From NCBI GenBank assembly GCA_028715175.1, contig JAQUSJ010000002.1, positions 92,117-156,116 of the forward strand: a DNA stretch of 64,000 nt, written 5' to 3'. The position numbers and the translations under genes were made by a program. Every line of letters begins with the position of its first letter. Positions within the stretch are counted from its first letter, which is position 1. This stretch comes from Candidatus Daviesbacteria bacterium (GTDB lineage: Bacteria; Patescibacteriota; Microgenomatia; Daviesbacterales; UBA10151). Of this stretch, positions 5,472 to 29,149 are shown piece after piece. The notes beneath the pieces were generated by a model that did no database searches, was not told the origin of the DNA, and was given only the letters and a program-made list of their open reading frames with translations.

Positions 5472-5474
<3 letters not shown>

Positions 5475-9000: not shown

Positions 9001-12000
9001 ACTAATCTAACCAATGCAGGTTTATGGACAAATGGAGACGGATTGCTTTTAACCACCGGAGGAACTAATACTTCAGGGATTACTGTAACCGGAGCCGGTA
9101 ATATTGGGATAGGAACCACTTCGCCTGCGTATAAACTGGATGTGGTTGGACAAATTAATAGCAGTACAGGTCTCTGTATTAACGGAGATTGTAAAAGTTC
9201 ATGGACAGGATCTGCAGGGTACACCGCCTCAAACGGTATCACACTATCCTCCGTAGACTTCCAGTTAGGCGGTAAGTTAACCAGGGCTACGGGAATTGAT
9301 ATTGCTTCCCAAAACTTTGGCTTTTTGGGTGGCAATGTGGGGATTGGGACAACAAGTCCTCAGACAGCTTTATCACTAAGTTCCGGACAATCTGCAACTG
9401 GCATCTCTCTTTACAACACTGCTGATGAAACAACAAACTATGAGCGGTTAAGAGCGTATTGGAGTAGTAACTATGCTTGGATAGATACTACCAAGGGAGG
9501 TAGCGGAACTAGTCGAGGGTTGATTATTAGCGGGGCAGGTGGACTTTTTCTAAAATCATCAACAAGTGTCTATTTTGATGCTGGCACTTCCTTTATTGTA
9601 GCATCGACTGGAATAACACCTTCTGCTACCATCACCCGGGCTACTGGTTATGCCAGATTTGGTGATGCCACAGCTCCTACCGTATCCTTAGAAGCTGCTA
9701 ATGGTTTCATTGTAGCCGCTGGCAACGTCGGAATTGGAACAACGGGGCCAGGGGCGCCGTTAGCAATAAATGGTGTGGGTAAAGCTAGCACCGATGACCT
9801 GCTTCTGGTTGGTCAAGGGGGAAGTGGACAAATCAGAGTCAGACACATTGAGGGAAAGCAGTCTGACAGCGACAACTATGGAGACTTATACCTCAATTAT
9901 AACTCAACGGGAAATGTCCTCTTAGTACGTGGCGGTGGTAATGTTGGGATTGGGACAATTTCTCCTACTGGTAAATTAATAGTTTCAGGAGGCAATGTTG
10001 GCATTGGAGTATCTACACCTCTCACTGCTTTAGCAGTTAACGGAGGAGGAACTATTGGCTGGGGTTTAACAGGAGTAGCAGGACCAACTAATGGATTGGC
10101 TGTATCTGGAAATGTAGGGATAGGAACTTCCAGTCCCAGCACTTTTAACCTGGAGGTAGCTGGAAATATTGGGCCGGAAGCAGACAGCACCAGAGATATT
10201 GGCTCTCCCAGCCGCTACTATGCCAACATTTATGCCAAAAATTTGATCACCGGCACTTCCGGTAATGTTGGATATTGGACCAGAACAGGTACTACTCTCT
10301 CTCCGGTTACAGCCGGTGACAACGTTTCTTTAACCGGCTCATATTCCTCTACCCCGGCCACAGACACACCAGCCATAACTTTAACCGGCACCAATGTTGC
10401 AACTTCTAACCTGGCCTACTTTAATGCCAAAAATACTTCCGGCACGATTTTTAATATCGCTTACGGAGCAGCAACAACTCTAACAGGAGATTTAGTCGGC
10501 ACCAGTATTGATTTAAATGACGGCAAAGTTACTGACAGCACTCACTCAATCACGGGATTTTATACTAAACTGCCAACAATCACAGCTGATAATGCCACCG
10601 GTATTGTTTCCTTAAAAGGATTATCTGTATTCTTTGGCACCGGCTCCGGTATTAATGAAACAGGGGCCGGGGCGCTCACTTACACTGCAGCTGATTTGTC
10701 AATGCCGGCTTTAACCCAAACTGCCGGAACTTTAACTGCCAACGGAGTTCTAATCACAACGCCTTTATCTATTACTACCGGCGGAACAGCCAACGGAGTC
10801 AATATTTCTCCAACAGGCGTGGGGGCGGGAACTTTAAATGCAATTAATATCGGCACAATCTCTCCCCTGGGGGGCACAGAAAATGCCATAGCAGTTGGGA
10901 CAGGCTGGGATAATGTCTTAAAAGTTGGTTCAACCACAGTCATTAACGGATCAGGTGTTACCCAGGTGGCAGGAGGAGGAACCGGCATTGCCACCTATAA
11001 TGTAGGTGACTTGCTTTATGCTTCAGGCGCCACCACTTTCACCAATATAGGCATTGGCACATCAGGACAGGTCTTAACAACAACAGCCGGAGTACCGATC
11101 TGGGGCAATGTTAACGGCTCCTCTTGTACCAACTGTCTGGTTAATAACCCGACTTCCACTCAGAATATCTCTCCCACAGGACAAACTACTACCGGTTTAT
11201 CTGTCAGGCAAACCTCAACCGGCTCCCCCACCCAGGACATCTTTAATGTCACCTCTTCAGACGGGGTTACCAAATACTTCTATGTAGACAGCAGCGGCAA
11301 TGTCTCAACAGGCGGAGTTGCTTCTCAAACCCTCACTTTAACCCCTACCTCTGATACTACCGCTTTAACCCTGGTGGGAACAAATGTAGCAACTTCTAAG
11401 CTGGCCTACTTTAATGCCAAAAATTTACAGGGCACTATCTTTGATATCTCTTATGGAGCTTCTGCTACTTTAAGGGCCAATCAAACATTAACAGGCCAAA
11501 ACATTGACCTTTCCACCAATGTTTCGGTCGGCGCCGGCAGTACAAATCCCATCTCGGTAACTGGCTTTGCCTTAACCATGCCGGCTCCCACCAACACCAA
11601 TACCTCCGGCACCAATGCCTTAAAGGGGCTGGTTATCACAGCCGGATCCGGCATTAACCAAAACGGCGCAGGCGGCACAACCACTTTTTCCGGAGTTGAT
11701 GTGACTATTCCCCCTCTTACTCAAACCGCCGGCACTTTAACCGGTAACGGAGTTTTAATAACCACTCCTTCCTCCATTACCACCGGAGGCACAGCCAATG
11801 GCTTAAATATCTCACCCACCGGAGTAGGCGCAGGAACGCTGAATGGCATAAACATTGGCAATATCACTGCCGGATCAGGAACTGAAACAGCTATCAATGT
11901 GGGAACAGGCTGGGATTATGGCCTTTATTCTCAAACTACCAATCCTTCCTATTTTGCCGGTAATGTTGGGATTGGAACAACAACACCGGGAGCCACACTA

Positions 12001-15000
12001 GAGGTTGCTGGCTCTCAAACCATCGGATCAGCAGCTTCCACCTCTAGTATTTTAAGACTCTTTGGAAGCGTTGGTTATGGTGAGCTTCGTATAGGAAATT
12101 CTGACACTTATAACTGGCGAATGATGAGGGAAAATCAAACTACTGGCAGATTAGACTTTATTCCCAGCACAGGCTCTCTAGGATCAACCCCAACATTAAC
12201 TCTTCTAACTGGTGGTAATATCGGCATTGGCTTTACTTCTCCTAATGCCCTGCTTCATATTGGAGGGGCTGATCAAACTACTTCTGCTTATGGTATTAAG
12301 ATGGGATCTGATATTACACTTTACAGATCAGCTACAAATACACTCAAAACAGATAATAATTTTGTGGTTGGAGGATCATTAACTACAGCCGGACTGACTA
12401 ATACCAGCCAATTCCTGGCAGCTAATGGAACTGCAGCTCTTCCCTCTTACTCTTTTACTAATCTAACTAATGCCGGATTATGGACTAATGGAAACGGACT
12501 ACTGTTAACTACAAACGGATCCAATACCTCAGGTATAACTGTAACAGGAGCAGGACTGGTTGGCATTGGGACAACTGCTCCTGTCTATGCTCTTGATATT
12601 GTTGGTAACTCTAGCTTATGGCAATCAGTTTATGGCACTGATGATGGTTTGGTAGGTTACTGGGATTTTTCAGAAGGAACAGGCACCAAAGCTTATGACA
12701 AAAGTCCTTATGGAAATGACGGCACAATTACTGCCGGCGCTGGTGGCTGGACAACCGGCAAATACGGAAATGCCTATGATTTTGATGGTGCCTCTGACGG
12801 TTCAGGCACTTATATTGATGTAGGAAATAAAATTACGGCAAGTAATTTGTCCAGCCTAACCATTGAAGCATGGTTAAAAAGGGATGCTATATCTCCTGCA
12901 GCAGAAGATCATATAATTTCCAACTGGACTGGTACTTATCATTTTGGCACTACTTCCAACAAGTTTTCAATCTATCTATATAACACTACTCCCACCCAAG
13001 GTAGTGTAACAGGAACAACTACTGTTACCAATGGTGTTTGGTATCATGTTGTTACCACCTACGATGGTTCAAAAATCAGAATCTATGTTAACGGCGTAGA
13101 AGAAAATTCAACAGATTTCTCTGGTAGTCTGCGTTCAAGCTCAACTACCACAAAAATTGGCGCCGGCGGAAGTTATCCAGGAGCTTGGGCAAGTTATCTG
13201 TTCAATGGCAAAATTGACGAACCAAGGATTTACACTCGGGCCCTATCAGCTGATGAAGTCAAAGCTCACTATTTAAGAGGAAGTAGTAATACGGCTGTAA
13301 CCATGAATACCTCTACCACAGCAGGAACTGTTTATGGCTTAAGAGGAGTAGTCACAGATACAGGAATAGTTACTACTGGCACAGATACCGCTTATGGTTC
13401 AAGAATTGATGTCACCCGAACAGGAGCAACCGGAGGAACCCTCAATACTTATGGACAATATCTTAACTTAACAACTGACAATGCCGGAGGCGGTACTCAT
13501 AATGCTTATGGTTTGTATGTTGCTTTAGATGGCAATGCAGACAATAATTATGCAGCGGTATTTACCGGAGGCAATGTCGGTATTGGGACAACTTCACCTG
13601 GGGCAAAATTAGCAGTGATTGGCAATGTTGGTATTGGCACTTCTGCTGCCGGAGCAGCGCTGCAGGTTAATGGCGGAGGTTTGTTTGGTTGGGGCACTAC
13701 TTCCATAGCAGGACCTTCTAATGGTTTAGCTGTATTTGGAAATGTTGGTATAGGTACTACCTCCCCTACTAATCCTTTAACAGTTATAGGCAATGCCAAT
13801 ATCGCCGGCACTTTAACTACAGCCGGACTTACCAATACCGGCCAATTCCTGGCTGCTAATGGTACTGCAGCTCTTCCCTCTTATTCTTTCTCAAATCTAA
13901 CTAATGCAGGTTTATGGACTAATGGGAATGGATTACTCTTGACTACAGGAGGAACCAATACTTCAGGAATTACTGTTACAGGAGCCGGAAATGTTGGAAT
14001 CGGGACAACCAGCCCAATAGGACAGCTTGCTCTGGGAACATACCAGGGAGGCACGGGAAGCAGTATTGTGGCCGCTTATGGTAAGCAGTTGACTTTAACA
14101 GGCGCTTTTAATGCTGGTTATAACACCGGCTCTCAAATTAAATTAATGATTAATGACTACAGCAATGATGGAGGAGATGATATCTATCCTATCTATGCCG
14201 AAGATGAGAATAACGGAGTTGATTTTTACATCAGAAATCAGGCAGGCACCAGAACAGCTTATTTCGGTGGCAACGTCGGAATTGGGGCAACTACGCCTGA
14301 GGCAAAACTTCATGTAGTCGGAACGTTAAGAACAGATAGCACTATTACAGCATATGTTAACGGTATTGATAATGCACCTATAACAATGGACTATTATAAC
14401 GGCAGGTACAGGATTGAATCGTATAAGTTAGCCACATCAGGACAGATAATGAGTATTAATGAAACTCTCCACGCTGTAATGTGGGGCAATGTGGGGATTG
14501 GAACACAGTCTCCTGCCAGCAAGCTTCATCTGCTTGGTTCAGGAGCTACTACTGCTCCCACCTTCATGACTCAAAACTCTACCTCTACCAACTTTGGCCT
14601 GGCAGTTTTGGATAATGGCAATGTAGGTATTGGGACGACGAGTCCGACATCTACCTTTGAAGTGGCGGCTTCCAAAACCATTAACTTTAACTCCAGTCCG
14701 GTTAGCAATCTAGTTTTAGGCAGTAATATGAGTGCCGGTAATTATAACATCACAAGTGTTAACCAATTAACAATAAACTCAACTAACGGAATAAACCGAG
14801 ATGTAGATAATAGCTATTTAAATTTGATGGGTGGGACTAACTGGTCTAGCGGCGGCGGCGCAGCAGTGTTGATTGCCGGAAAAGACCTTGCGGGTCAAAC
14901 AGGAAATGTTCGTGTTTATACTCCTAATGCGGCTGGAAGTAGCGGGCTTGAACGCCTAAATATTGGTGGACTCGCTACTACTGCTAATTTCATCATTTCA

Positions 15001-18000
15001 AATAGTAACGTTGGCATCGGGACACAGTCTCCTGTAGGAAAACTTCATCTGCTTGGTTCAGGGACTACTACTGCTCCCACCTTCATGACTCAAAACTCTA
15101 CGTCCACCAACTTTGGCCTGGCAGTTTTGGATAATGGCAATGTAGGTATTGGGACAACTAACCCAACAGAAAAATTATCAATACGAAGCTCTGCTGTTAG
15201 TACAAATGCATTTTCTTCAGTAGCTAATTCTGATGCATCTACATTTGTCTCTTTATATGGAGGGACTAATACTAATGAAGCTGCTATTATTTGGTCAAAT
15301 ACTTCCGGAAAAGCATTGCGTTTTGGAGTAGGAAATGATCCTTCTGCTTCAGGTGCATGGTCAGAAAAAATGCGGATTACAACCGCAGGCAATCTCGGTA
15401 TTGGCTTTACCTCTCCAGATAGACTACTTCAGATAGGGTCTGATATAAATATCACTGGTACTGCTGCTTCTATCTTAGGGGCTAATGGAACACAGTTTAG
15501 TATTACCGGCTCTACAGCCAATACCCTCCATAAAAAATTAACTCTGGGAATAGATACCACTGATAATTATGGTGTTATCCAGGCTGGAAATACAGACGGA
15601 ACAACATATAATTTAGCCCTAAATCCAGCCGGAGGCAATGTCGGGATAGGGACAACAGCGCTCAATTCTAAACTTCAAGTTGCATCTAGTTATAGCGGCA
15701 GCTATGGGGACAGTACAATTTATGGCTCATATTTTAACATGAACCTTAGTAGTGTTACCAATGCTACCAAAAATGGTTTATACAGCTTAGTAAACGGAAC
15801 TGTCGGCTATAATGGATACACCAATGCTATTTTAGGAGAAGTAAGCACAACAGGAACACAGAATAATGGAGTAATTGGCGTTTACGGATACTCTCACGCA
15901 ACCAGCAGTGAAGGTAATTATGGGCTTAAAGGTTATGCTAATAGTGGAGGATATACAAATGCCGGTATCTGGGCAGCAGTAGATGGAACAGGAGCCTCCT
16001 CAGGTGGTTATAATCCCAGTGCTCGTAACGGAAACTACGCTTTTTACGGCACAGCAACCACTACCGGAGCCGGTGCCACCAATGTAGGACTTTATGTCTC
16101 AGCCTCAGGAGCAGGTACGAATTACGCCGCCATTTTTGATCAAGGCAATGTCGGCATCGGGACGACAGCACCAGGATATAAATTATCGATCGCTGGCGAT
16201 GTAATTGTGGGCCAAACAACAGCAGGGACTTTGAGAATAAGTGAATCTGGTGATCCAACCAATAGAGATAGAGACTATGTATTTAATGGTTCCGCCAACT
16301 TACTAACTTTAAAACGTTCAGATGATGCGGGAGCTGGTTTCAATATTACAAATACAGGATCTATTGGCATCGGGACAGTGGGGCCAGCAATAAACCTAGC
16401 TATTGGTGATACCGATACCGGGTTAAAGTGGGTCTCTGACGGAATCATCACCATGTACGGCAACAATCAGGAACTTGCTCGGTTCGATGGGGATGGGACT
16501 CAAGGTGTGGAGCTTTGGATTAGCCAAGGAGCAAATACAGAACGCCTTTGTCATGCTGCCGGAGATGTAACAGCTCAAAGAGCCCTGATAGACGATTGTA
16601 GTGGTACCCCCGGAGATTATGCCGAAGAGTATGGTACCACAGATGTAAGCATCGAATCAGGGGATATTGTCATGGTCGACAAAACAAGATCAGCTCAGGA
16701 AATTGAAAAAGATGGGCTTAAAGGGTCAAAGGCCTGGATAGTCAAATCAAATAAATCATACCAGGATAGTATTATAGGCGTCATTTCTACTAACCCTAAT
16801 GAGGTAATTGGAAAGAATTTTGAGCCAGAAGAAAATCCCAGACCAGTATCTTTAAACGGTAGAGTTCCGGTTAAAGTTAGTACTGAAAACGGGCCTGTTG
16901 AGGTTGGAGATTATCTGACTTCATCTTCTGTTCCAGGAGTAAGTATGAAAGCGACTAAACCTGGTCCAGTTGTAGGTAAAGCATTGGAAGGCTATAACAA
17001 TCCTGATCCCACAGTAGTTGGCAAAATCTTAGTATTTATCAATATCTCATGGGTAGATCCCAACTATTCCCTGACAGCAGCAGCTACTTTGTCTTTGGAT
17101 GTAAACGGCAATCTCAATCTGACTTCACCATCGCTGACCTCTCCCTCTCTGACTCTTACTCCTACAGGCAACGTTGGCATTGGCACCTCCAGTCCGTCTG
17201 CAGCTTTGGATGTAGTGGGAAATGCTACCATCAGTGGCAGAATCTCCTCGGGGGTGGGCTTTGACTCCCCCGAGGTGAATACTCCGCTTTTGGACTTAGG
17301 CCCGGCCAGCATTGCTTCCTCCTCATCCGGCCTGGCTATCCAATTTGCAACTGACAACATGGGAGGTATACCAACTACATTCCAAATCAAGAACTCTTTA
17401 GGGCAAAACTTATTCCAGATTGACGCTTCAGGATCAGCAAAATTGGCCGGGACCATTACCACAGAAGCCGGAGCCTTTGATGTAGCAGAAGATTACAATG
17501 TAGCTGATGATTCAATTGAAGCAGGAGATGTAGTTAGTATAGACGATGGAAAATCGAGTATGGAAGATGGAATTTCGAAGATAGAAAATGGAAGTTTGAA
17601 TGAAGTAAGTCCATCTTCTACCATCAATCCTCAAAATACTACCCTCAATCCTCCATCATCTACCGTCGAAAAATCCTCAAAACCTTATGACAATAAGGTA
17701 GTCGGTATTATCTCCACCAAACCGGCAATAACTTTACAAAACAAACCAGGTTTGAATTCAGACAAACCTGGTTTGAGCACAAAACCGGTAGCTCTGGCCG
17801 GCAGAGTACCTGTGAAAGTTTCAACAGAAAACGGAATAATTGAAAAAGGAGATTATTTAACTTCCTCTTCAATTCCCGGGGTAGCAATGAAAGCTACCAG
17901 ACCTGGTCAAGTTATAGGAAAAGCATTAGAAGCTTTCAGCTGTCAGTCTTCAGCTATCAGCCGGACAGAAAATAGTCTGACAGCTGACAGCGAAGCGGTA

Positions 18001-19203
18001 CTGACGACTGAAAGCTGTCAAGGCAAAATCTTAATGTTTATTAATGTTGCTTTTGCCGACCCCGGCAACTTCTTTGCCTCTCTATCCTGGGATGAGCAAG
18101 GTAATCTGATAATTCCCAAGATCAAAACAAACTCATTAATGCTGGATCCGTCCGTTGCCTCTGCTTCCAGCCAATTAACTATTAACAATGAACAATTAAC
18201 TATTAACTCCGATCCCAACTTTATCTCCCCTGGTCCAAATCTGGCATCAAATACCAATAACTATATAGATTTATCAGGAGAGATAGCTTCTTTGGAGGAT
18301 AGAATCAAGAATCTAGAGTCTAGAGTCAAGGAACAGAATCAAGAAATCACTAGACTCTCGACTCTGGCAACTAGCAACTCCTCATCAGGTAATGTTGGAA
18401 TAGGAACAACTGAGCTTTCAGTCGTCAGCCCTCAGTCGTCAGACTCAGCTCAAATTGCTTCATCCTCTTCCAGTCTGACAGCTGATAGCCGACAGCTGAC
18501 ATCTGATTTGCACCTCACTCCTCCTGATATCCTGCTAACCACCGGTTCTGCCGTATTTACCAACTTGACTGTTAAATCAGAAGCCACTATGTCCGGACAA
18601 CTTAGCATCTATGACCTGTCAGTCTCAAATACTCTTAAGTCTTTGGGCAAAACTACTCTGGCCGACACCTTAATTGCCGGAGATCTGATGATAGACGGAA
18701 CAATGTCTATATCCGGAAACTCGATTAACTCCTCGGGGGTGGGCCTTGACTCCCCCGAGGTGAGTAACGGCACTCTATATCTGCAAAATTCTACCCTGGC
18801 CCAGGGCCTGGACATCTTCAATGGCAAAGTAACCATAGATCCCGCAGGAAATATAACAACTCAAGGCAAAGTTATTGCTTCTGAGGTTAAAACCAACAAG
18901 CTGACTATTTCCAATACACCAATAGCTACCTCCTCTGCGAACACACCAGGGGCGGGCTTTGACTCCCCTGGTGTGAACGGAGCCTCAATCGGCACAACAA
19001 CCTTACCTGCAGGAGCGACCGCTGTCACTATCCAGACTGCCCAAATAAGCGAGAGCGCTAAAGTCTTTATCACTCCAATAAGCCCGACAGACAAAGTTCT
19101 GTCTGTTACAGATATTAAACCGGGTACAAGCTTTGATGTTTCGATGCTTACCCCATCCCAGACAGATATTAAGTTTAACTGGTGGATAGTAGAAAGCAAA
19201 TAG
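6010..19203 (+). CDS. Giant (4397 aa) membrane-anchored surface protein: N-terminal MerR-type HTH, one TM helix, G-N-V-G-I-G-T repeat modules, LamG/ConA-like lectin domain, duplicated C-terminal modules
   Basis: Uninterrupted 13.2 kb ORF. IGQAAKLLGVSIDTLRRWEKAGKI...GGTRLY is MerR-like. TM helix LLVGSVFLSIITLLITSWITA. LamG-like GLVGYWDFSEGTGTKAYDKSPYGNDGTI...GKIDEPRIYTRALSADEV. More than 40 copies of NVGIGT. Confidence 0.8.
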   Translation: MSDPSTTKPLLKIGQAAKLLGVSIDTLRRWEKAGKITAIRTPGGTRLYHLSQLKKVNPASVEDFQAKSFTTEELLKKTEIQTVDDRQWKIGVEDRNWTIDDQSSTIHLQKSTFNPLSSIVNKLLVGSVFLSIITLLITSWITASYLTNPNQTQQFFKNNIASGLFSPFHKLAEVAVAEISPAQAKILGFIPPDEPPPLIISQQPNKSSAVLAVTSLLPFLEVNADTQINGSLFVRDSVNGLNMEATSSASSMALTSGDTTLTVTKDALLDQDVSTTAAPTFNTLNLSATKDQLVFQSGGPTGTLTWTPTATRTITLPDVTTTLVGKDTTDTLTNKSLSGSSNTLTNIPNSALTNSKVTVTAGTNLTGGGDISLGSSATIALKDSPSITGTLTVGGTTTLSGATTLSSTLAVTGAATFSSTITAGGVVKLTDGTAAAPALTFTSDTDTGLYRIGTNKIGLITAGTATSGITIDENGNVGIGTISPTSQLQTTGNVGIGGSASITSLLSANGSAAVTGSFCLNGDCKSSWTGIGGYTASNGITLSSTDFQLGGNLTRATGIDIAGQNFGFLGGNVGIGTTNPNYQLETTGNVGIGGSLTVTSTGVFGSIQDNGSLVVSGTSYLQGILGSTLTTTGNIGIGGSASIASNLNAGSLTVTGLSSLANVNTSAINASSLTTTGNITSQGTFLAANGTASAPGYSFTNLTNAGLWTNGDGLLLTTGGTNTSGITVTGAGNVGIGTTIPGATLEVAGSQTIGSASSISSILRLFGSIGYGEFRIGSSDIYNWRMMRENATTGRLDFIPSTGSLGSIPTLTLLTDGNVGIGTTSPNYKLDVVGQINSSTGLCIDGDCKTSWSGSAGYTASNGITLTGVDFQLGGSLTRATGIDIASQNFGFLGGNVGIGKSNPSYALDVLGTGYFSGFLGVGSSMNVAGNVGIGGTAAITSLTQANGGLTVTGASILQALTATDINAATLTATGNITSQGTFLAANGTASAPGYSFTNLTNAGLWTNGDGLLLTTGGTNTSGITVTGAGNIGIGTTSPAYKLDVVGQINSSTGLCINGDCKSSWTGSAGYTASNGITLSSVDFQLGGKLTRATGIDIASQNFGFLGGNVGIGTTSPQTALSLSSGQSATGISLYNTADETTNYERLRAYWSSNYAWIDTTKGGSGTSRGLIISGAGGLFLKSSTSVYFDAGTSFIVASTGITPSATITRATGYARFGDATAPTVSLEAANGFIVAAGNVGIGTTGPGAPLAINGVGKASTDDLLLVGQGGSGQIRVRHIEGKQSDSDNYGDLYLNYNSTGNVLLVRGGGNVGIGTISPTGKLIVSGGNVGIGVSTPLTALAVNGGGTIGWGLTGVAGPTNGLAVSGNVGIGTSSPSTFNLEVAGNIGPEADSTRDIGSPSRYYANIYAKNLITGTSGNVGYWTRTGTTLSPVTAGDNVSLTGSYSSTPATDTPAITLTGTNVATSNLAYFNAKNTSGTIFNIAYGAATTLTGDLVGTSIDLNDGKVTDSTHSITGFYTKLPTITADNATGIVSLKGLSVFFGTGSGINETGAGALTYTAADLSMPALTQTAGTLTANGVLITTPLSITTGGTANGVNISPTGVGAGTLNAINIGTISPLGGTENAIAVGTGWDNVLKVGSTTVINGSGVTQVAGGGTGIATYNVGDLLYASGATTFTNIGIGTSGQVLTTTAGVPIWGNVNGSSCTNCLVNNPTSTQNISPTGQTTTGLSVRQTSTGSPTQDIFNVTSSDGVTKYFYVDSSGNVSTGGVASQTLTLTPTSDTTALTLVGTNVATSKLAYFNAKNLQGTIFDISYGASATLRANQTLTGQNIDLSTNVSVGAGSTNPISVTGFALTMPAPTNTNTSGTNALKGLVITAGSGINQNGAGGTTTFSGVDVTIPPLTQTAGTLTGNGVLITTPSSITTGGTANGLNISPTGVGAGTLNGINIGNITAGSGTETAINVGTGWDYGLYSQTTNPSYFAGNVGIGTTTPGATLEVAGSQTIGSAASTSSILRLFGSVGYGELRIGNSDTYNWRMMRENQTTGRLDFIPSTGSLGSTPTLTLLTGGNIGIGFTSPNALLHIGGADQTTSAYGIKMGSDITLYRSATNTLKTDNNFVVGGSLTTAGLTNTSQFLAANGTAALPSYSFTNLTNAGLWTNGNGLLLTTNGSNTSGITVTGAGLVGIGTTAPVYALDIVGNSSLWQSVYGTDDGLVGYWDFSEGTGTKAYDKSPYGNDGTITAGAGGWTTGKYGNAYDFDGASDGSGTYIDVGNKITASNLSSLTIEAWLKRDAISPAAEDHIISNWTGTYHFGTTSNKFSIYLYNTTPTQGSVTGTTTVTNGVWYHVVTTYDGSKIRIYVNGVEENSTDFSGSLRSSSTTTKIGAGGSYPGAWASYLFNGKIDEPRIYTRALSADEVKAHYLRGSSNTAVTMNTSTTAGTVYGLRGVVTDTGIVTTGTDTAYGSRIDVTRTGATGGTLNTYGQYLNLTTDNAGGGTHNAYGLYVALDGNADNNYAAVFTGGNVGIGTTSPGAKLAVIGNVGIGTSAAGAALQVNGGGLFGWGTTSIAGPSNGLAVFGNVGIGTTSPTNPLTVIGNANIAGTLTTAGLTNTGQFLAANGTAALPSYSFSNLTNAGLWTNGNGLLLTTGGTNTSGITVTGAGNVGIGTTSPIGQLALGTYQGGTGSSIVAAYGKQLTLTGAFNAGYNTGSQIKLMINDYSNDGGDDIYPIYAEDENNGVDFYIRNQAGTRTAYFGGNVGIGATTPEAKLHVVGTLRTDSTITAYVNGIDNAPITMDYYNGRYRIESYKLATSGQIMSINETLHAVMWGNVGIGTQSPASKLHLLGSGATTAPTFMTQNSTSTNFGLAVLDNGNVGIGTTSPTSTFEVAASKTINFNSSPVSNLVLGSNMSAGNYNITSVNQLTINSTNGINRDVDNSYLNLMGGTNWSSGGGAAVLIAGKDLAGQTGNVRVYTPNAAGSSGLERLNIGGLATTANFIISNSNVGIGTQSPVGKLHLLGSGTTTAPTFMTQNSTSTNFGLAVLDNGNVGIGTTNPTEKLSIRSSAVSTNAFSSVANSDASTFVSLYGGTNTNEAAIIWSNTSGKALRFGVGNDPSASGAWSEKMRITTAGNLGIGFTSPDRLLQIGSDINITGTAASILGANGTQFSITGSTANTLHKKLTLGIDTTDNYGVIQAGNTDGTTYNLALNPAGGNVGIGTTALNSKLQVASSYSGSYGDSTIYGSYFNMNLSSVTNATKNGLYSLVNGTVGYNGYTNAILGEVSTTGTQNNGVIGVYGYSHATSSEGNYGLKGYANSGGYTNAGIWAAVDGTGASSGGYNPSARNGNYAFYGTATTTGAGATNVGLYVSASGAGTNYAAIFDQGNVGIGTTAPGYKLSIAGDVIVGQTTAGTLRISESGDPTNRDRDYVFNGSANLLTLKRSDDAGAGFNITNTGSIGIGTVGPAINLAIGDTDTGLKWVSDGIITMYGNNQELARFDGDGTQGVELWISQGANTERLCHAAGDVTAQRALIDDCSGTPGDYAEEYGTTDVSIESGDIVMVDKTRSAQEIEKDGLKGSKAWIVKSNKSYQDSIIGVISTNPNEVIGKNFEPEENPRPVSLNGRVPVKVSTENGPVEVGDYLTSSSVPGVSMKATKPGPVVGKALEGYNNPDPTVVGKILVFINISWVDPNYSLTAAATLSLDVNGNLNLTSPSLTSPSLTLTPTGNVGIGTSSPSAALDVVGNATISGRISSGVGFDSPEVNTPLLDLGPASIASSSSGLAIQFATDNMGGIPTTFQIKNSLGQNLFQIDASGSAKLAGTITTEAGAFDVAEDYNVADDSIEAGDVVSIDDGKSSMEDGISKIENGSLNEVSPSSTINPQNTTLNPPSSTVEKSSKPYDNKVVGIISTKPAITLQNKPGLNSDKPGLSTKPVALAGRVPVKVSTENGIIEKGDYLTSSSIPGVAMKATRPGQVIGKALEAFSCQSSAISRTENSLTADSEAVLTTESCQGKILMFINVAFADPGNFFASLSWDEQGNLIIPKIKTNSLMLDPSVASASSQLTINNEQLTINSDPNFISPGPNLASNTNNYIDLSGEIASLEDRIKNLESRVKEQNQEITRLSTLATSNSSSGNVGIGTTELSVVSPQSSDSAQIASSSSSLTADSRQLTSDLHLTPPDILLTTGSAVFTNLTVKSEATMSGQLSIYDLSVSNTLKSLGKTTLADTLIAGDLMIDGTMSISGNSINSSGVGLDSPEVSNGTLYLQNSTLAQGLDIFNGKVTIDPAGNITTQGKVIASEVKTNKLTISNTPIATSSANTPGAGFDSPGVNGASIGTTTLPAGATAVTIQTAQISESAKVFITPISPTDKVLSVTDIKPGTSFDVSMLTPSQTDIKFNWWIVESK
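17246..17277. repeat. Family-D perfect hairpin (CCTCGGGGGTGGGCTTTGACTCCCCCGAGGTG), in frame in the giant gene (SGVGFDSPEV)
   Basis: 9-10-bp GC-rich stem read directly. Confidence 0.75.
17931..18017. repeat. Family-A element inserted in frame inside the giant gene (encodes AFSCQSSAISRTENSLTADSEAVLTTESCQ)
   Basis: The paralogous module at 16980-17040 has GYNNPDPTVV at the equivalent position. Confidence 0.75.
18414..18506. repeat. Family-A element inserted in frame inside the giant gene (encodes ELSVVSPQSSDSAQIASSSSSLTADSRQLTSD)
   Basis: gagctttcagtcgtcagccctcagtcgtcagac...agtctgacagctgatagccgacagctgac. Confidence 0.7.
18731..18762. repeat. Family-D hairpin in frame in the giant gene (SGVGLDSPEV)
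   Basis: cctcgggggtgggccttgactcccccgaggtg. Confidence 0.75.
18947..18974. repeat. Family-D hairpin variant in frame in the giant gene (PGAGFDSPGV)
   Basis: ccaggggcgggctttgactcccctggtg. Confidence 0.6.
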
Positions 19204-19210
19204 GACCTAT

Positions 19211-19789
19211 ATGACAGATACGACCTATCCGACAGATCAAAAGAAAACGCACGGCGGTTACCGTAACCTCCGATCTTTCCAAACTGCCACCCTTATATAT
19301 GACCTGACTGTCGAATTTTGCGATCGTTATATGACCTATCCGACTAATAAGTCTTATAGGACCTATGATCAAATGGTGCAAGCGGCAAGGAGCGGCAGAC
19401 AAAACATTGCTGAAGGTTCCCAAGCCTCCGCCGTCTCTAAAAAATCAGAAATCAAACTGGTAGGAGTAGCCAGAGCTTCACTGGAAGAGCTACTTATAGA
19501 CTACGAGGATTTTTTAAGACAACGGTCTTTGCCTCTTTGGAGCAAAGGTTGCCCCCAGGCTCAAACTATTAGGAATCTGACGTATAAGACGGATAAGACT
19601 TATACGACCTATCAGACCTATCTTAAAAATCCTGAATCTGCAGCTAATTGCTTAATCTGCCTGATTCATCAAGCTAATTATCTTTTAGACAAACAACTTC
19701 AGGCTTTAGAAAAAGCCTTTATTACCCAAGGCGGTTATTCTGAAAATCTCTTTAAAGCCCGCCTGAAAAAGAGGGAATCAGACCGATGA
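19211..19789 (+). CDS. Four-helix-bundle protein (23S rRNA IVS-protein family) with repeat-derived N-terminus
   Basis: NIAEGSQAS...VARASLEELLIDYEDFL matches the NIAEG...IARGSL.EL motif of four-helix-bundle proteins. The N-terminal TYPT/TYKTDKTYTTYQTY peptides are encoded by gacctat/taagtc repeats. Confidence 0.5.
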   Translation: MTDTTYPTDQKKTHGGYRNLRSFQTATLIYDLTVEFCDRYMTYPTNKSYRTYDQMVQAARSGRQNIAEGSQASAVSKKSEIKLVGVARASLEELLIDYEDFLRQRSLPLWSKGCPQAQTIRNLTYKTDKTYTTYQTYLKNPESAANCLICLIHQANYLLDKQLQALEKAFITQGGYSENLFKARLKKRESDR

Positions 19790-19872: not shown

Positions 19873-22230
19873 ATGGAAGAATTACAAGGTTTACGCAAAA
19901 CAGTAAACAATTATTTAGGCTTAATTTTTAAAATTGGTTTATGTCTGGTAATACTCTCTTCTTTCTTCTTCTTCACCAACCTGACAACCGAAATGTTTGA
20001 CAGCGCAAAATTTGTAGTACTAATAATTTTTACCGGATTGCTCCTGGTGCTTTTGACCTTAAAATTTACAATTGCCGACAAAGTTACATTTGTTAGAACT
20101 CCACTGGATATCCCCCTGATATTGCTTCTTGTAGTCGGCATTGTTTCTACCTTTCTCTCGTCGGCCCCTTATGTTGCTCTACTCGGCAATCAGCTTAAAA
20201 TTCACGGAAGCTTAGTTTCTCTGGCTGTATACATTTTGTTTTATTTTATCCTGGTTAATAATTTAAAAAATATAAAGAATATCCGGTGGATTTTTACCTT
20301 AACGATAGTCGCCTCACAGGTACTCGCAGTTGCAAGTCTTCTAACATATAGCGGGGTTAAAATACTACCCGGTCCATGGGTACACGGAATTAACTTCACC
20401 CCGACAGGCTCTAACTTTTCCACAACTGCTATTCTGGCGCTTCTAATACCTTTTATTGTGATACAGATCCTAACCTCTTCTAAGCCAATATTACTTATTC
20501 TTAACTCCTTATTCTTGCTTTTATCCGGACTGGCAATTGCCTTAACAGGCACATGGGCAACATGGATTGGAGCTTTGGTTGCTCTTTTACTAACTGTTGC
20601 AGCAATCGCTCCGATCAGACAAATAAGTCGGATTAGACCTATTAGTCTGATAGGACTAATCGGACCTATAAGTCTAATAGGACTAATTACAGCTCTTTCT
20701 TTTATCCCACCTTTAAGCGGGGTTAAAAATCCCATCTATACCCAGGCGCAAAACTTTCCCAGGGAAATACAGTTATCCTTTGTAGATTCCTGGAAAATAT
20801 CTGTTTCTGCTTTTCGGGATTCACCTTTTTGGGGCACCGGACCGGCTTCTTTTAGCTTTGATTTCACAAATTATAAACCGGTTGAATTTAATACTTCCAA
20901 ATTCTGGAATCTAAGATTTGACTTACCGTTTAATGAATACTTACAAGTCTTAGCCAGCTTGGGAGGTATTGGTTTGGTAGCGCTACTATCCTTAACAGCA
21001 TTATTTATTTCTTCGGCATATCAGACCTATATGACTTATCGGTCCGATAGGTCTTATTCGGAAAGCGAAAAAGTCACCCTCGCAATCTCCGGTCTGATTT
21101 TCTTTATTATATTAGCCCTGCATTCGGCAACCTTAAGCGTGTGGGTAATTGGTCTTTTGGTCTTAGCCTCTTTCATGGTGATTAACCAGGAAAACAATCC
21201 CGGTTTGTTTTCTTTCAAACCGGGATTGAATGAGCAGAATAATTTTAAAAACATGTTTTTGAAAATTGCCGGAAACATCAGTAATCCGGAATCTTTAAAA
21301 GAAACCATCAGGATAGATGCGCTACCCGGGATCTTGTTGACAATTGCCCTGGCTTTGGTATTATTTGCAGGTTTCTTTGGAGGAAAATTTGTACTGGCAG
21401 ATTACTACCACAGATTAGCGCTAAATGCAGTCGCGGAAAACCAGGGTATTGTTGCTTATAACAACTTAATAGCGGCAGAAAAACTTAATCCATATAATGA
21501 CGTGTACCGGACAGATCTAGCGCAGACCAATTTTGCCCTGGCAAATGCCATAGCAACGGCCAAAGCTCCAACCGAAGCTTCACCATCAGGTTCGCTAACA
21601 GACCAGGACAAACAAAATATCCAGATTCTGCTCCAGCAGTCAATATCTGAAGCAAGAACTGCCGTCACCTTAAGTCCGAAATCAGCAATAAATTGGGAGA
21701 TACTGGCGATGCTCTACAGACAAATTTCCGGCGTTGCCCAAAATGCGCTGGTTTTCTCTCTTGACGCCTACGGCAGAGCAATCTTTCAGGATCCTCTAAA
21801 CCCCAATTTAAGAGTTAGTGTTGGCGGTGTCTATTATGCGGTTAAAAATTATGACATGGCAATCAGGTTCTTTACAGATTCCATAAATTTAAAGCCTGAT
21901 TTTACCAACGGATACTACAATTTATCTGTTGCTCTCCGGGATAAGGGAGATTTAACTAATGCACAGGCTCTGGCGGAAAAATTACTGACATTAATAGACA
22001 AATCTTCGCCTGATTATAAAACAGTAAGCGATTATCTTGACGATTTGAAAAGTCGGGTAGCATCCGGCAGCACTAAAGAGTCGGAAATTCAACCTCCTGC
22101 TTCGAAAGAAACCGGCGCGCTTCAGCAAAAAGAGTTGCCAAAAGTAGTTGATGTGGGTAATCCCCCAAATAATATTGCCACCCCGTCTGCCGTCAAAAAA
22201 CCCAACCCTACCCCAACACCAAAACCATAA
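19873..22230 (+). CDS. Polytopic membrane protein, O-antigen ligase (Wzy_C)-like with C-terminal TPR repeats
   Basis: About 10 hydrophobic helices followed by TPR-like repeats (AIRFFTDSINLKPDFTNGYYNLSVALRDKGDLTNA). Contains the repeat-encoded IRQISRIRPISLIGLIGPISLIGLI. Confidence 0.55.
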   Translation: MEELQGLRKTVNNYLGLIFKIGLCLVILSSFFFFTNLTTEMFDSAKFVVLIIFTGLLLVLLTLKFTIADKVTFVRTPLDIPLILLLVVGIVSTFLSSAPYVALLGNQLKIHGSLVSLAVYILFYFILVNNLKNIKNIRWIFTLTIVASQVLAVASLLTYSGVKILPGPWVHGINFTPTGSNFSTTAILALLIPFIVIQILTSSKPILLILNSLFLLLSGLAIALTGTWATWIGALVALLLTVAAIAPIRQISRIRPISLIGLIGPISLIGLITALSFIPPLSGVKNPIYTQAQNFPREIQLSFVDSWKISVSAFRDSPFWGTGPASFSFDFTNYKPVEFNTSKFWNLRFDLPFNEYLQVLASLGGIGLVALLSLTALFISSAYQTYMTYRSDRSYSESEKVTLAISGLIFFIILALHSATLSVWVIGLLVLASFMVINQENNPGLFSFKPGLNEQNNFKNMFLKIAGNISNPESLKETIRIDALPGILLTIALALVLFAGFFGGKFVLADYYHRLALNAVAENQGIVAYNNLIAAEKLNPYNDVYRTDLAQTNFALANAIATAKAPTEASPSGSLTDQDKQNIQILLQQSISEARTAVTLSPKSAINWEILAMLYRQISGVAQNALVFSLDAYGRAIFQDPLNPNLRVSVGGVYYAVKNYDMAIRFFTDSINLKPDFTNGYYNLSVALRDKGDLTNAQALAEKLLTLIDKSSPDYKTVSDYLDDLKSRVASGSTKESEIQPPASKETGALQQKELPKVVDVGNPPNNIATPSAVKKPNPTPTPKP

Positions 22231-23645: not shown

Positions 23646-23683
23646 CCAACTATTTTAACAGAGGGAGTCAATCATAAGCAAAA

Positions 23684-23763
23684 TAGCTATCAGTCATCAG
23701 TCTTCAGCTGTCAGACTAAAAAAATACAGGTCTGACGACTGAAAGCTGATAGCTGACGACTAC
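23684..23763. repeat. Family-A element at the M23-peptidase|rho junction; supplies the rho stop codon
   Basis: tagctatcagtcatcagtcttcagctgtcagac...gtctgacgactgaaagctgatagctgacgactactTAA. Confidence 0.8.
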
Positions 23764-25148
23764 TTAACATCTTTCAATGTCTTTAAGAATTCATCATTAG
23801 ATTCAGCCTTGGCTAACCTTTCCAGGAAAATCTCTGTTTTTTCATTCTCATTCAATATCCCGATCATCCTTCTCATGATGATCATTTGCTTGTAAGTATC
23901 TTCCGGAAAAAGCAGCTGCTCCTGTCTGGTACCTGAAGCTTCAATATCTATTGCCGGGAAAATTCTTCTTTCGGCAAGTTTTCGATCCAGATGCAACTCC
24001 ATATTGCCTGTACCCTTAAATTCCTCATAAATTAAATCATCCATCCTGGAGCCTGTATCAACCAGGGCTGTACCAATTATTGTTAACGACCCGCCTTCCT
24101 CACAGTTCCTTGCAGCCCCGAAAAAGTGTTTCGGAGGGTAAAGAGCCACCGGATCAAATCCGCCCGATAAGGTCCTTCCGGAGGGCGGTACAGACAAGTT
24201 ATATGCCCGCCCGAGGCGGGTAATCGAGTCTAACAGGATAACAACGTCCTTACCGCTTTCAACAAGCCTTTTGGCCCGCTCCAGGGCTATTTCGGCAGCT
24301 GTGGTTTGAGCCTCAGCCGGTTCATCAAAATTGCTGGCTATAACATCACCTTTGATAGACCGGGACAGATCTGTCACTTCTTCCGGTCTCTCACCTACCA
24401 AAACCGCCATAAGTATTACGTCGGGATGATTTTTGGCAACACCGGTAGCAATATCTTTTAAGATAGTGGTTTTACCTGCTTTTGGCGGTGAAACAATTAA
24501 ACCCCTCTGACCAAATCCGATCGGCGCCACCAAATCTATCACCCGCTGACTAAAAGGGGTTTTGCCTGTTTCAAGTTTTAAGTGTTTGTTAGGATAAATC
24601 GCTGTCAAATCCTCAAATTTCGGCCGCTTGACCGGTCTGCCCTCGGAAGATATTAATTTATCCGCATTTTCTCCATTTACTTTATTGACCTGCAGCAGTC
24701 CAAAATATCTTTCAGTTTCTTTGGGGGGCCTGGCTGCTCCTTCGACAAAATCGCCCGAACGTAACCAAAACCTTCTGATCTGGCTGGCGGAAATATATAC
24801 ATCTGCATCTGAGGGTATATATTTAGGTCTAAGAAACCCATGACCTTCTGACATAATATCCAGGACACCGGAAACTTCTTCTGTGGGTACATCACGGTCT
24901 GAGTAACGGTTACCATTAGAATAGCCGTTACGGACGTTAGATGATGGAGAATAGAGGGTAGATCTTTGAGGATAGAAATTAGAAGGTGGATTACTTTCAT
25001 TCGATCCTCCATTTTCCATCTTCGAAGTACTATCTTCTACCATCGATTTTCCATCGTCTGTCTGCTGTGGCTCTCCCACCAACTCCTCAGCCGATACTGT
25101 TTCGTCTGACGACTGATGTGGTTTAAATGATTTTGTTACACGAGGCAT
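23760..25148 (-). CDS. rho: Transcription termination factor Rho (with N-terminal extension)
   Basis: RNA-binding region [15 protein letters not shown]; Walker [19 protein letters not shown]; [33 protein letters not shown]. Confidence 0.85.
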
Positions 25149-27866: not shown

Positions 27867-28200
27867 TCTAACCATTAGAATTAACTTCTGGTCAGCTGTC
27901 CGTAATATCTTCTTTACCTGTTCCGTTACCATAATATCTACACCGCTTGTTCTTGCTCTAATCCTTTTTTCCCTTCTTAAACCGGTCATGAACCTACTTA
28001 CGAACATAATATATCTACATTATCAGGAAAAAAACTATTTGTCAAGTTTTTTAAGTCCCATAAGTTTTTTTACTCTACTTTTTCCTAGACCTGTAGTTAT
28101 TATTGGGGGCTATGATGGGTGTTTTATCCTGTTATGACAAGCTAAAATAAGGGTATCCTTTTAGATATTAACAGAAAACTAAGTAATGTGGAAAAGTAGA

Positions 28201-28272
28201 TGTCAGTCTTCAGCTATCAGCTGTCAGACTAAGAATTCTTGTCTGACGACTGACGACTGACGACTGACTACT
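28201..28272. repeat. Family-A element downstream of yacL-like gene; supplies its TAG stop
   Basis: tgtcagtcttcagctatcagctgtcagac-taagaattctt-gtctgacgactgacgactgacgactgactactg. Confidence 0.8.
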
Positions 28273-29149
28273 GCCCTATTTCCTTTGCAAATATCATCCT
28301 GCCTGCAGGGGTTTGAATGTTTTTAGTAACTTCAATCTTAATTGTTTGACCGATTTTGTCGGCAGATCCTGAAACAACCACCATAGTGCCGTCTTCAAGA
28401 TACCCTACGCCCTGTCTGCTGTCTTTACCCAGATGTACGATTTTTATTTCAAAATTCTCCCCGGGCAAACTGACTGTTTTAACTGCATTTGCCAAATCAT
28501 TCACATTCAATACGGTAATGTTCCAAACCGAAGCAAGCTTATTAAGATTAAAATCTGTGGTGATAATCCGGCCATTTAGGGCTTTTGCCAGCTTCAATAA
28601 TTTATCATCAACAAATTTGCCGTTTTGTTCCTTATCCCAAATCTGAAGTTGTACATTTTTAGTCTTCTTCAGCTCTTCTACAACCTCAAAACCGCGCCTC
28701 CCTCTTGTCCTTTTCAGACTATCCGATGAGTCTGCTACTTGCTGAAGCTCTGTTAAAACAAAATTTGGCACAAGTATTAATCCGCTCGCAAACCCTGTTT
28801 TTGCTATATCCAGAATTCTGCCATCAATGATAGCAGAAGTATCTAAAATTAAGGGTCTGGCGGACAGAGGAACAACTGGAGTAGTGGCAGGACGTTTGCT
28901 GATTTGCCTTGATACTTCAAATGACAACCTGTGAACCACAAAATTGAATGTGGTCATTGTTATCTTCACCACAGATTTGGCAATCGATGGAAAAACTACA
29001 TAACCCAAACCGCCTGCCGCCAGCGTGAGCAGCACCCTTATAATAAAGGAGTTTTCCCCAAAAAAAGGCGGGATAAGCTGCGAATAAATACTAGCTATGG
29101 TCGCAAAAATGAACGCCAATATCAGGCGGATAACAAATTGTACACGCAC
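28268..29149 (-). CDS. YacL-like membrane protein with PIN and TRAM domains
   Basis: N-terminal TM helices; PIN-like ILDTSAIIDGRI...TTDFNLNKLA; C-terminal TRAM-like VVVSGSADKIGQTIKIEVTKNIQTPAGRMIFAK. Adjacent to radA, as in Firmicutes. Confidence 0.6.
   Translation of the reverse strand: MRVQFVIRLILAFIFATIASIYSQLIPPFFGENSFIIRVLLTLAAGGLGYVVFPSIAKSVVKITMTTFNFVVHRLSFEVSRQISKRPATTPVVPLSARPLILDTSAIIDGRILDIAKTGFASGLILVPNFVLTELQQVADSSDSLKRTRGRRGFEVVEELKKTKNVQLQIWDKEQNGKFVDDKLLKLAKALNGRIITTDFNLNKLASVWNITVLNVNDLANAVKTVSLPGENFEIKIVHLGKDSRQGVGYLEDGTMVVVSGSADKIGQTIKIEVTKNIQTPAGRMIFAKEIGQ

Follow-up and report, generated by a model that had tools for sequence, protein, structure and literature searches.

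A dispersed heptad-repeat palindrome at stop codons, in a 23S rRNA loop and in frame within protein-coding genes of a Candidatus Daviesbacteria genome

Results

A heptad hairpin family dispersed through the window

We analyzed a 64-kb stretch (referred to here as the window) of contig JAQUSJ010000002.1 from a metagenome-assembled genome (MAG; GCA_028715175.1) of Candidatus Daviesbacteria, a member of the candidate phyla radiation (CPR)/Patescibacteria, and the many copies in it of a palindromic element, here named family A, which lie at gene ends, in a 23S rRNA loop and, in frame, within protein-coding genes. The window has a G+C content of 42% and is approximately 78% coding, 10% stable RNA, and 12% intergenic; its gene content, with F-ATPase genes, the mevalonate pathway, type IV pilins, and an rRNA operon, is consistent with CPR/Patescibacteria. 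An earlier reading of the DNA letters (the original prediction) had placed in-frame copies inside the genes of a giant protein, RadA, phosphoglycerate kinase (PGK), a SpoU methyltransferase, and HMG-CoA reductase (HMGR), and all of these placements stand with small corrections. Its interpretation is supported in part; it had missed the logic that ties the 7-nt period to TGA codons, the copies in rRNA, and the use of element ends as stop codons.

Family A elements are hairpins of 65 to 99 nt with the general form (TCAGNNN)x3-5, an A/T-rich loop, and (NNNCTGA)x3-5. The left arm consists of three to five units of TCAG(TC or CT)N followed by a central TCAGAC; after a loop of 7 to 29 nt, mostly A/T-rich, the right arm opens with GTCTGA and continues with units of N(AG or GA)CTGA, and the outer ends read [A/G]TAG...CTA[C/T]. 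A strict pattern (TCAGN3TCAGN3TCAGAC-N5-25-GTCTGAN3CTGAN3CTGA) gave 7 matches in the window and 0 in 100 dinucleotide-preserving shuffles. Looser criteria yielded 13 full and 3 half copies in the 64 kb, and dozens more were found on related Daviesbacteria contigs. By RNA folding, the full copies reached free energies (dG) of -23 to -52 kcal/mol with z-scores of -4 to -8 relative to shuffles, and the half copies, located in PGK, the SpoU gene, and the N-terminal linker of RadA, were unfolded (dG -4 to -9, z ~0).

Pairing within the stem follows a recurrent pattern. In 168 units taken from 64 copies of the window and related genomes, a left TC lay opposite a right AG, or a left CT opposite a right GA, in 126 cases, and 14 units were fully complementary; of the seven positions in a heptad, four thus form Watson-Crick pairs, two give a U·G and a C×A, and the 7th is mostly mismatched. 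As proof of ongoing structural selection, this rule was weakened by the count of coordinated switches (6) versus uncoordinated ones (about 9), and register shifts in the arms did not restore complementarity. Because a single archetype dominates once orientation is collapsed (16 of 51), the pattern is better taken as a property of the family's master sequence, from which it was probably inherited, than as proof of selection on each copy.

Family A at gene ends

Full copies are depleted from coding sequences, with 3 of 13 found there versus 78% expected (P = 3e-5). Eight intergenic full copies touch a stop codon or lie within 3 nt of one, and a ninth does not; the other placements are one over the HMGR stop, one in helix 25 of 23S rRNA, and three in open reading frames (ORFs). 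For six genes (atpA, atpG, atpD, rho, uppS, and a PIN/TRAM gene) the TAG stop codon is the first unit of an element, and two further genes have a TAA stop adjoining one. The ends of eight non-coding copies read [A/G]TAG followed by TCGTCAG or CTNTCAG, whereas the coding copies have CAG instead.

The F-ATPase genes carry three such copies on the plus strand. The first (3007-3096) fills the atpA/atpG gap, its first TAG being the atpA stop and the ATG of atpG following 2 nt past its last CTA; the same site is empty in a relative (L052), where it reads TAG CCT ATG. The second (3961-4040) lies between atpG and atpD, supplies the atpG stop with its TAG, and is followed at +3 nt by the atpD start, and the third (5472-5551) supplies the atpD stop. 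With the start codons of atpG, atpD, and HMG-CoA synthase located 2 to 3 nt past a terminal CTA, stop and start stand at the base of one stem. The copies that bridge stop and start in this way (3007-3096, 3961-4040, and 59517-59596) leave no space for a Shine-Dalgarno sequence.

Elsewhere, a plus-strand copy (937-1016) lies directly 3' of the TAA stop of the ORF at 253-939, and minus-strand copies supply the TAG stops of rho (23680-23762) and of the PIN/TRAM gene at 28268-29149 (28193-28270); the PIN/TRAM site holds a half copy in one related locus (L104) and is empty in another (L057). The copy at 56493-56573, to which no strand is assigned, contributes a stop codon to each of two convergent genes, the left end being the TAA stop of the ORF at 53520-56495 and the right end (CTA) the TAG stop of minus-strand uppS. 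The copy with no adjoining stop codon (45026-45111, minus strand) lies between the ORF at 45190-46386 and the 16S rRNA gene.

Two of these intergenic copies have recognizable orthologs. The copy after atpD is approximately 93% identical to its counterpart at L054:5780-5860, loop included, and the arms of the copy between rho and an M23 gene are approximately 95% identical to those at L057:3440-3515. Both were kept although the proteins are only about 77 to 78% identical, and, judged by eye, the arms are about 93 to 95% identical versus about 75 to 80% for adjacent coding DNA, with differences falling on the unpaired 7th position and the loop. The arms thus exceed the neighboring coding DNA in conservation, which suggests that the RNA hairpin has been under purifying selection or that copies have been homogenized.

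The heptad period closes standard copies to translation

Seven is 1 modulo 3, so three CTGA heptads place a TGA in every reading frame, and because the element is a palindrome, an arm with at least three intact CTGA units closes it in both orientations. The arm read in the TCAG sense is open and encodes a peptide rich in S, Q, A, and V. Of the 60 frames of the 10 full copies outside coding sequences, just 1 is open. The three full copies within coding sequences have a single open frame apiece, and in every case it is the frame that the gene uses. The same held in relatives: all 56 full copies of standard form in a set of 55 related low-GC loci were closed in all frames, and every coding instance found there (in leucyl-tRNA synthetase [LeuRS], arginyl-tRNA synthetase [ArgRS], CarB, and others) had kept the TCAG arm with the CTGA arm broken or missing.

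The coding copies escape closure by several routes. In RadA and in the first copy of the giant gene, the sense CTGA arm comprises two units, the module AGCGAAGC-NN-TA (7 + 3 nt), and two more units, and the later units are re-phased because the module adds an extra 3 nt. A unit that falls in frame is altered in other cases, to CCGA (the third CTGA unit) in the second copy of the giant gene and to CAGA in the RadA allele of locus L194, and all three half copies are in the TCAG sense on the gene strand. We considered whether AGCGAAGC-NN-TACTGA represents stop repair after insertion and ruled this out, as the AGCGAAGCGATACTGA module also occurs in non-coding copies of five loci (L027, L030, L032, L052, and L054) and in the window copy at 3007-3096. 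The GCGAAGC module is thus a variant that already existed before insertion, and its re-phasing of the heptads is fortuitous. The open reading frames indicate that the inserts are translated, since such frame constraints are not expected if they were bypassed or spliced out.

Coding copies occupy loops, linkers, and termini

The giant protein (4,397 aa; gene 6010-19203) carries two full copies on the plus strand. The first (17931-18014; dG -42.2, z -6.4) is in frame within ...AFSC-QSSAISRTENSLTADSEAVLTTE-SCQG... and open in frame +1 only; its left arm has four TCAG units, and its right arm two CTGA units, AGCGAAGCGGTA, and two more CTGA units. It lies in a loop between the motifs 'GKALE.F' and 'GKI[LM].F[VI]N', where the window reads 'ALEAFSCQSSAISRTENSLTADSEAVLTTESCQGKIL' and paralogous module 1 reads 'ALEGYNNPDPTVVGKIL'. 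This loop has 8 to 10 aa in the paralogous module and in many orthologs, and others hold unrelated repeat-derived peptides. The claim that the copy is in frame in place of a shorter paralogous segment stands, whereas the length of 30 aa given for it is somewhat too great: the cysteines of 'SC...SCQG' also occur in orthologs that lack family A and thus look native, which leaves an inserted part of about 23 aa rather than 28 to 30. The second copy (18413-18506; dG -31.7) has a long loop and one open frame and encodes ELSVVSPQSSDSAQIASSSSSLTADSRQLTSD in a hypervariable linker before 'LTPPDILL', where it is a putative insertion; one ortholog (P0135) has a different heptad palindrome at this place.

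RadA (29946-31358, minus strand) contains one full and one half copy. We compared it with the sister locus (L001; GCA_028712705.1), which is syntenic with the window at 87% nucleotide identity over approximately 11.5 kb, and with solved structures. The full copy (30916-31014, minus strand; dG -35.6) lies directly past the Walker-A helix (NINQSSVVSRQSSDKDKKSLIADSEAILKADDSR) and represents a net gain of 90 nt relative to the sister, which reads LALNLPNVLY where the window reads LALNINQSSVVSRQSSDKDKKSLIADSEAILKADDSRVLY; it also corresponds to a 28-aa gap in Streptococcus pneumoniae RadA (PDB 5LKM). The half copy (31208-31237, minus strand), comprising the TCAG-sense arm only, encodes ELSAVSRQRSVRQ in the linker after the zinc ribbon and is present in both genomes. 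In an AlphaFold2 model of RadA built with 68 orthologs, the predicted local distance difference test (pLDDT) score fell below 50 at residues 40 to 61 and 120 to 146, i.e., in both element-encoded segments, and low scores were otherwise limited to the N-terminus and two short loops, while the flanks of the insert (helix 105-122 and strand 149-152) were confidently predicted. The two RadA inserts are thus modeled as disordered loops.

In PGK (40147-41229, minus strand), a 36-nt in-frame segment (41112-41147, minus strand; SSVISHQSSDQN) contains a perfect (TCAGTCA)x4, given in the original prediction as (GACTGAT)x4, a tract of 4.3 perfect heptad units. The segment is missing from the sister and corresponds to a 12-aa gap in the solved PGKs 3UWD and 1PHP. 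The lengths of the RadA and PGK segments, 90 and 36 nt, are multiples of 3 when measured against the sister genome, as had been claimed. Predicted peptides from the insert-bearing regions are SLIADSEAILK for RadA and SSVISHQSSDQNLVVLEDFR for PGK.

The two other hosts carry the element at their termini. In the TrmH/SpoU methyltransferase, a half copy (50383-50412, minus strand) encodes SSQSSAISRQ near the N-terminus. The annotated start of the gene (50445) is conserved as 'M[VI]KLNA.QLR' and is followed by a hypervariable cassette of 10 to 14 aa, which the half copy fills here and which in the sister reads GIGDRVQGIV, translated from another heptad family. At the other end of a gene, a full copy (59517-59596, plus strand) lies across the 3' end of the HMGR gene, encodes its last 8 aa (AISLQLSD), provides the stop codon in its loop, and ends 3 nt ahead of the HMG-CoA synthase start. 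Homology to HMGR of known structure (6HR7) stops at ...KAHKKLGR, the last residue of that chain and ahead of the element-encoded residues. Among 41 ortholog tails, recovered by motif search from 80 metagenome loci of which the other 39 gave none, the ending is LGR or a variant followed by 0 to 10 aa, mostly 0 to 6, compared with LGRKK+AISLQLSD* in the window.

These coding segments might alternatively be protein-level linkers, rich in S and Q, that arose in place by slippage, heptad expansion, or gene conversion, in which case their likeness to the intergenic palindromes would be secondary. The perfect PGK tract could have come or grown by slippage, the TrmH cassette keeps a near-constant length of 10 to 14 aa while its heptad family switches between close relatives, and heptad-type peptides occur in the N-terminal linker of many RadA orthologs. 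However, the full copies in RadA and the giant protein have both arms, the loop, and the GCGAAGC module ordered as in non-coding copies, the gain in RadA is exactly one whole element, and the two arms encode unrelated peptides, so that palindromy is a property of the DNA or RNA and not of the protein. We regard an origin in place as distinctly improbable.

Presence/absence polymorphism and an insertion hot spot in RadA

Three of the window's insertions are missing from the sister locus, namely the 90 nt in RadA, the 36 nt in PGK, and the copy in 23S rRNA. The proposed ortholog alignments and genome comparisons thus gave the results anticipated for lineage-specific insertions, with the segments appearing as gaps against 5LKM and 3UWD/1PHP and as a tail beyond 6HR7, and the modeling placed the RadA inserts in regions of low confidence between confident flanks.

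The RadA site, located after LALN, was further compared in the 120 closest orthologs. Sixty-nine have a short, ancestral form of 4 to 6 residues, 8 have 7 to 11 residues that resemble remnants (e.g., INQSSSSV), and 43 have inserts of 12 to 49 residues belonging to at least 10 unrelated types, 9 of the inserts being family A-like. The DNA of three inserts outside family A also folds into hairpins (dG -47.5, -36.6, and -20.5), and the junctions of the RadA inserts agree within one codon. The loop of the giant protein and the TrmH cassette show similar behavior. Between the window and a distant ortholog (P0008), the family A inserts are alike in arm layout, loop, and module and differ in unit types.

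A 7-nt unit is not divisible by 3, and the heptad tracts could on this ground be phase-variation switches, in which gain or loss of one unit shifts the frame and turns the gene off; the 4.3 perfect units in PGK and the presence of a giant surface protein among the hosts would suit such a role. Most tracts, however, are imperfect, with 1 to 3 positions differing between units, which suppresses slippage, and on/off switching makes little sense for housekeeping hosts such as PGK, RadA, TrmH, LeuRS, and ArgRS. Moreover, no frameshifted allele was found among 120 RadA or among 120 TrmH orthologs. Phase variation is therefore highly improbable.

Assembly error was also weighed, as the source is a MAG and repeats are a classical cause of misassembly, such that the in-frame copies could be chimeric joins. 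The reading frames nevertheless stay open across every copy, the RadA architecture recurs in independent assemblies (L193, from SRR22387863; L194, from GCA_964432475.1; and L195-L197), and the insert-bearing RadA and TrmH proteins, 100% identical to proteins of a Candidatus Daviesbacteria MAG, are encoded on a 164,722-bp contig. Chimeric assembly, which the original prediction had named as a finding that would undo it, was not borne out, and we regard it as exceedingly unlikely.

The polymorphism bears equally on the proposal that the hairpin is a functional RNA co-opted within mRNAs, acting in ribosome pausing, stabilization, or processing and kept by selection on RNA structure. The full coding copies do fold strongly (-42.2, -31.7, and -35.6), the arms of orthologous intergenic copies are more conserved than adjacent coding DNA, and the fit of elements between one gene's stop and the next gene's start is exact. 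Against this, the RadA and PGK copies are missing from a sister genome of 87% identity, half copies that form no hairpin account for three of the six coding copies, unrelated families occupy the same codon in orthologs, and the conservation is observed for intergenic copies only. For the coding copies, the suggestion that RNA structure was co-opted in essential mRNAs is thus unsupported, given unfolded half copies, inserts dispensable in close relatives, and interchangeable families, and RNA co-option as a general account is quite unlikely. The other suggestion made at that time, purifying selection for frame-preserving insertions of a mobile hairpin, fits what was found: presence/absence at 87% identity, depletion from coding sequences, stop-free coding variants, and unrelated palindromes in the same loops.

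Family A in 23S rRNA

A copy with flanking GC (UUCG-type) mini-hairpins lies in the helix 25 loop of the 23S rRNA gene (37928-38050, minus strand; dG -52.2, z -8.3). It is not in the sister and is present in another relative (L106). A hairpin of a different heptad family, with AGTTCAT/ACTACGA units, occupies the helix 45 loop (37211-37309) and is likewise missing from the sister. Rfam large-subunit alignments put both inserts in the hairpin loops of helices 25 and 45, i.e., at sites of intervening sequences (IVS).

CPR bacteria have been reported to carry short insertions without ORFs at the IVS sites of 23S rRNA, helices 25 and 45 (PMC11270868). The inserts of the window resemble these as extended hairpins exactly in the loops of helices 25 and 45 that are polymorphic between close relatives. 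What differs is that the helix 25 insert belongs to the same family as the intergenic and protein-coding copies, a link not found in PMC11270868; the inserts at these classical IVS sites are copies of, or close kin to, the dispersed repeats of the genome.

The rRNA genes also contain LAGLIDADG-type ORFs, at 35759-36289 in 23S and 43040-43636 in 16S. The 16S gene matches its Rfam model in pieces only (42499-44798), as expected for intron-bearing CPR rRNA genes.

Distribution of family A and candidate mobilization genes

In a scan that used one genome per species, true family A was found in many Daviesbacteria MAGs, one Gottesmanbacteria MAG, and one 'Patescibacteria group' MAG, as well as in low-G+C bins labeled 'uncultured Gammaproteobacteria' (L024, L042, L054, and L057; third-party annotation [TPA] 'binchicken'). 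In the latter bins, the atpA, atpD, rho, glyceraldehyde-3-phosphate dehydrogenase (GAPDH), and M23 proteins are 70 to 79% identical to those of the window, several of the genes share one contig as they do in the window, and for these reasons we take the bins to be mislabeled relatives of Daviesbacteria. A wide host range of family A was ruled out, as the matches in Acidimicrobiia, Gemmatimonadales, and Acidobacteriota represent a different, high-GC family. Heptad hairpins as such are widespread; family A itself is not.

Hairpins of the high-G+C kind, (TCAGACN)n...(NGTCTGA)n, occur in Acidimicrobiia, Gemmatimonadales, Acidobacteriota, Chloroflexota, Thioalkalivibrio, and others, and their 7th position is often A×C or G·U (in L031, L036, and L038, by eye). 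A heptad hairpin that carries TGA in all frames may be a design of general use among bacteria.

The contig of locus L021 (CAZDEH010000004.1) carries a Y1 gene (5217-5885) resembling those of REP-associated tyrosine transposases (RAYTs; REP, repetitive extragenic palindrome), together with a family A copy at 1706-1754. Its protein matched Pfam Y1_Tnp (PF01797) at 31.9 bits; with the NCBIfam model REP_Tyr_transpos it scored 49 bits, below the cutoff of 80. No insertion sequence (IS) was seen, and the combination that defines a miniature inverted-repeat transposable element, i.e., terminal inverted repeats, target-site duplication, and an autonomous IS, was not found for family A.

Other repeats in frame within the window

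Family A is not the sole palindrome read in frame. A second family, with GATGGAA-type heptads, is in frame in the giant gene (17536-17664) and at the N-terminus of rho (24933-25059); at 127 nt each, the copies show 80% mutual complementarity, and a related peptide (DDRRLKIEDSNLKIED...) occurs in the RadA hot spot elsewhere. The giant protein, a polyprenyl synthase, and HMGR contain a GC-rich palindrome in frame (CACCTCGGAGGTGGGCTYTGACTCCYCCGAGGTG, translated as 'HLRG...' or 'TSEV'), with sites at 17244-17281, 18729-18766, 18942-18979, 57623-57681, 58088-58125, and 58556-58591; compared with 6HR7, HMGR is 7 residues longer at the palindrome.

Further in-frame segments missing from the sister are found in PGK (40222-40275, 54 nt), S1 (31977-32006, 30 nt), and GAPDH (39935-39949, 15 nt), and two of these three share a AGCGAYAGCGAG ('SDSE') motif reminiscent of the GCGAAGC module. 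Between 19191 and 21056, repeats with a 9-nt period (ATNNGACNT-like) lie in a 23S_rRNA_IVP-like ORF (19211-19789; TYPTDKTYTTYQTY-type peptide) and, read from the opposite strand, in a large membrane/TPR ORF (19873-22230; ISRIRPISLIGLIGPISLIGLI).

Discussion

We consider it likely that family A is a dispersed palindrome akin to REPs and their paired hairpin forms (REPINs) and to Rickettsia palindromic elements (RPEs), of which rare frame-compatible copies survive in permissive protein loops. The element would spread at the DNA level. Most surviving copies are found exactly at gene ends, where the terminal [A/G]TAG provides a stop codon and the whole gap from stop to start may be taken up by the hairpin; others persist in the 23S rRNA helix 25 loops and rarely in protein-coding genes. 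As the standard copy is a nonsense cassette in either orientation, survival in a coding sequence would require that it land in a structurally permissive loop, linker, or terminus, that the added length be a multiple of 3 nt, and that the CTGA arm be neutralized by GCGAAGC-NN-TA re-phasing, by a point change, or by absence of the arm. Inserts that survive, translated as disordered surface loops with presumably neutral peptides, would be gained and lost on short evolutionary time scales.

Several observations weigh against this account. No transposase lies within the window, no target-site duplication was seen at the empty/filled pairs (including RadA, PGK, and atpA/atpG), and the RadA junction is not clean, with 9 nt of the empty allele replaced. 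The PGK tract is open to the slippage explanation given above. P0008, whose RadA is 73% identical, has the insert while closer relatives (78 to 89%) lack it, which would call for precise losses or repeated gains at one codon. The L021 gene, the sole RAYT-like one found, has CCCACACCTGGTGTGGG hairpins to either side of it instead of family A, and RAYT-type mobilization is therefore a lead rather than a result. Finally, the conservation of the intergenic copies suggests that these are functional or homogenized rather than purely selfish.

Among known systems, RPEs offer a close parallel, having been found fused in frame to Rickettsia genes (PMC10969869 and PMC3184786; Ogata et al. 2000, 2002 summarized therein). 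Like RPEs, family A consists of many dispersed palindromic copies, some in frame in unrelated housekeeping genes and translated at positions compatible with the protein fold, with copies that vary between related genomes and no dedicated transposase known. The host, however, is a CPR bacterium rather than an alpha-proteobacterium, and the two families, compared by features and not by sequence, are analogues at most. Family A is also shorter (65 to 99 nt versus about 105 to 150 nt), is built of 7-nt TCAG/CTGA units whose standard arrangement is closed so that only variant or half copies are coding, is mostly non-coding with ends on stop codons, and occurs in 23S rRNA IVS sites as well.

GTAG REPs provide TAG stops, also lie within replication and repair genes, and are cleaved by RAYT at GTAG (Di Nocera et al., PMC3733652). 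Family A shares with GTAG REPs and REPINs (PMC3733652 and PMC3337134) the hairpin structure, a mostly extragenic location downstream of ORFs and between co-directional or convergent genes, termini that supply TAG stops, and occasional copies within ORFs, replication and repair genes among them; its [A/G]TAG end resembles their terminal GTAG, the stem G·T pairs of these repeats suggest an RNA function, and two arms with a spacer resemble a REPIN. It departs from them in size, with arms of 21 to 35 nt in elements of 65 to 99 nt versus stems of 5 to 13 bp in units of 20 to 40 bp, in stems of 4 to 5 heptads with one U·G and one C×A each, and in having TAG/CTA at both ends, which pair with each other. 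In the window and related contigs, no RAYT flanked by family A was found. By analogy, insertion next to NTAG is possibly carried out by a RAYT-like Y1 transposase.

Cyanobacterial short tandemly repeated repetitive (STRR) heptanucleotide sequences and small dispersed repeats (Mazel 1990; Elhai 2008) reportedly also consist of tandem 7-nt units, often forming hairpins downstream of genes and present in many copies. Family A differs in unit sequence and phylum, and a cyanobacterial origin was ruled out: the window has no sites of the highly iterated palindrome HIP1, and the homologs are in Daviesbacteria.

A literature search, which was not exhaustive, found no description of family A or of in-frame palindromes in CPR proteins. 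New here are the host group, the heptad architecture with its frame arithmetic, the documented hot spots, and the occurrence of one family in three niches, namely stop codons and intercistronic gaps, rRNA loops, and protein loops.

A more far-reaching proposal, which we hold to be doubtful, is that the heptad hairpin is a domesticated RNA device of streamlined CPR genomes and not merely selfish. The element carries stops in all three frames of both strands and supplies the actual upstream TAG, with the next start codon at the base of the same stem; its heptads keep to a constant set of non-Watson-Crick contacts, one U·G and one C×A, and the orthologous intercistronic sites (atp operon and rho-M23) suggest purifying selection. 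Were the proposal true, the element would organize mRNA processing or the coupling of termination to reinitiation in operons without Shine-Dalgarno spacers. Copies in proteins and rRNA would then represent spill-over, the cell itself actively maintaining the element and propagating it next to NTAG.

On the more likely reading of family A as a dispersed palindrome with rare coding survivors, a small and supposedly streamlined CPR genome tolerates a hairpin repeat in its stop codons, rRNA helices, and housekeeping enzymes. For CPR proteins, inserts of this kind lengthen and distort alignments and likewise affect phylogenies, domain calls, and structure predictions, and the variable S/Q-rich loops could pass for lineage-specific functional motifs. 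They also mark permissive sites in RadA, PGK, TrmH, and tRNA synthetases. The arithmetic of period 7 and TGA provides a simple, testable rule for which copies can become coding, and the recurrence of unrelated families at one RadA codon constitutes a natural experiment on insertion rate versus tolerance. Lastly, the copies that bridge stop and start codons raise the testable idea of translational coupling in organisms with tiny intergenic spacers.

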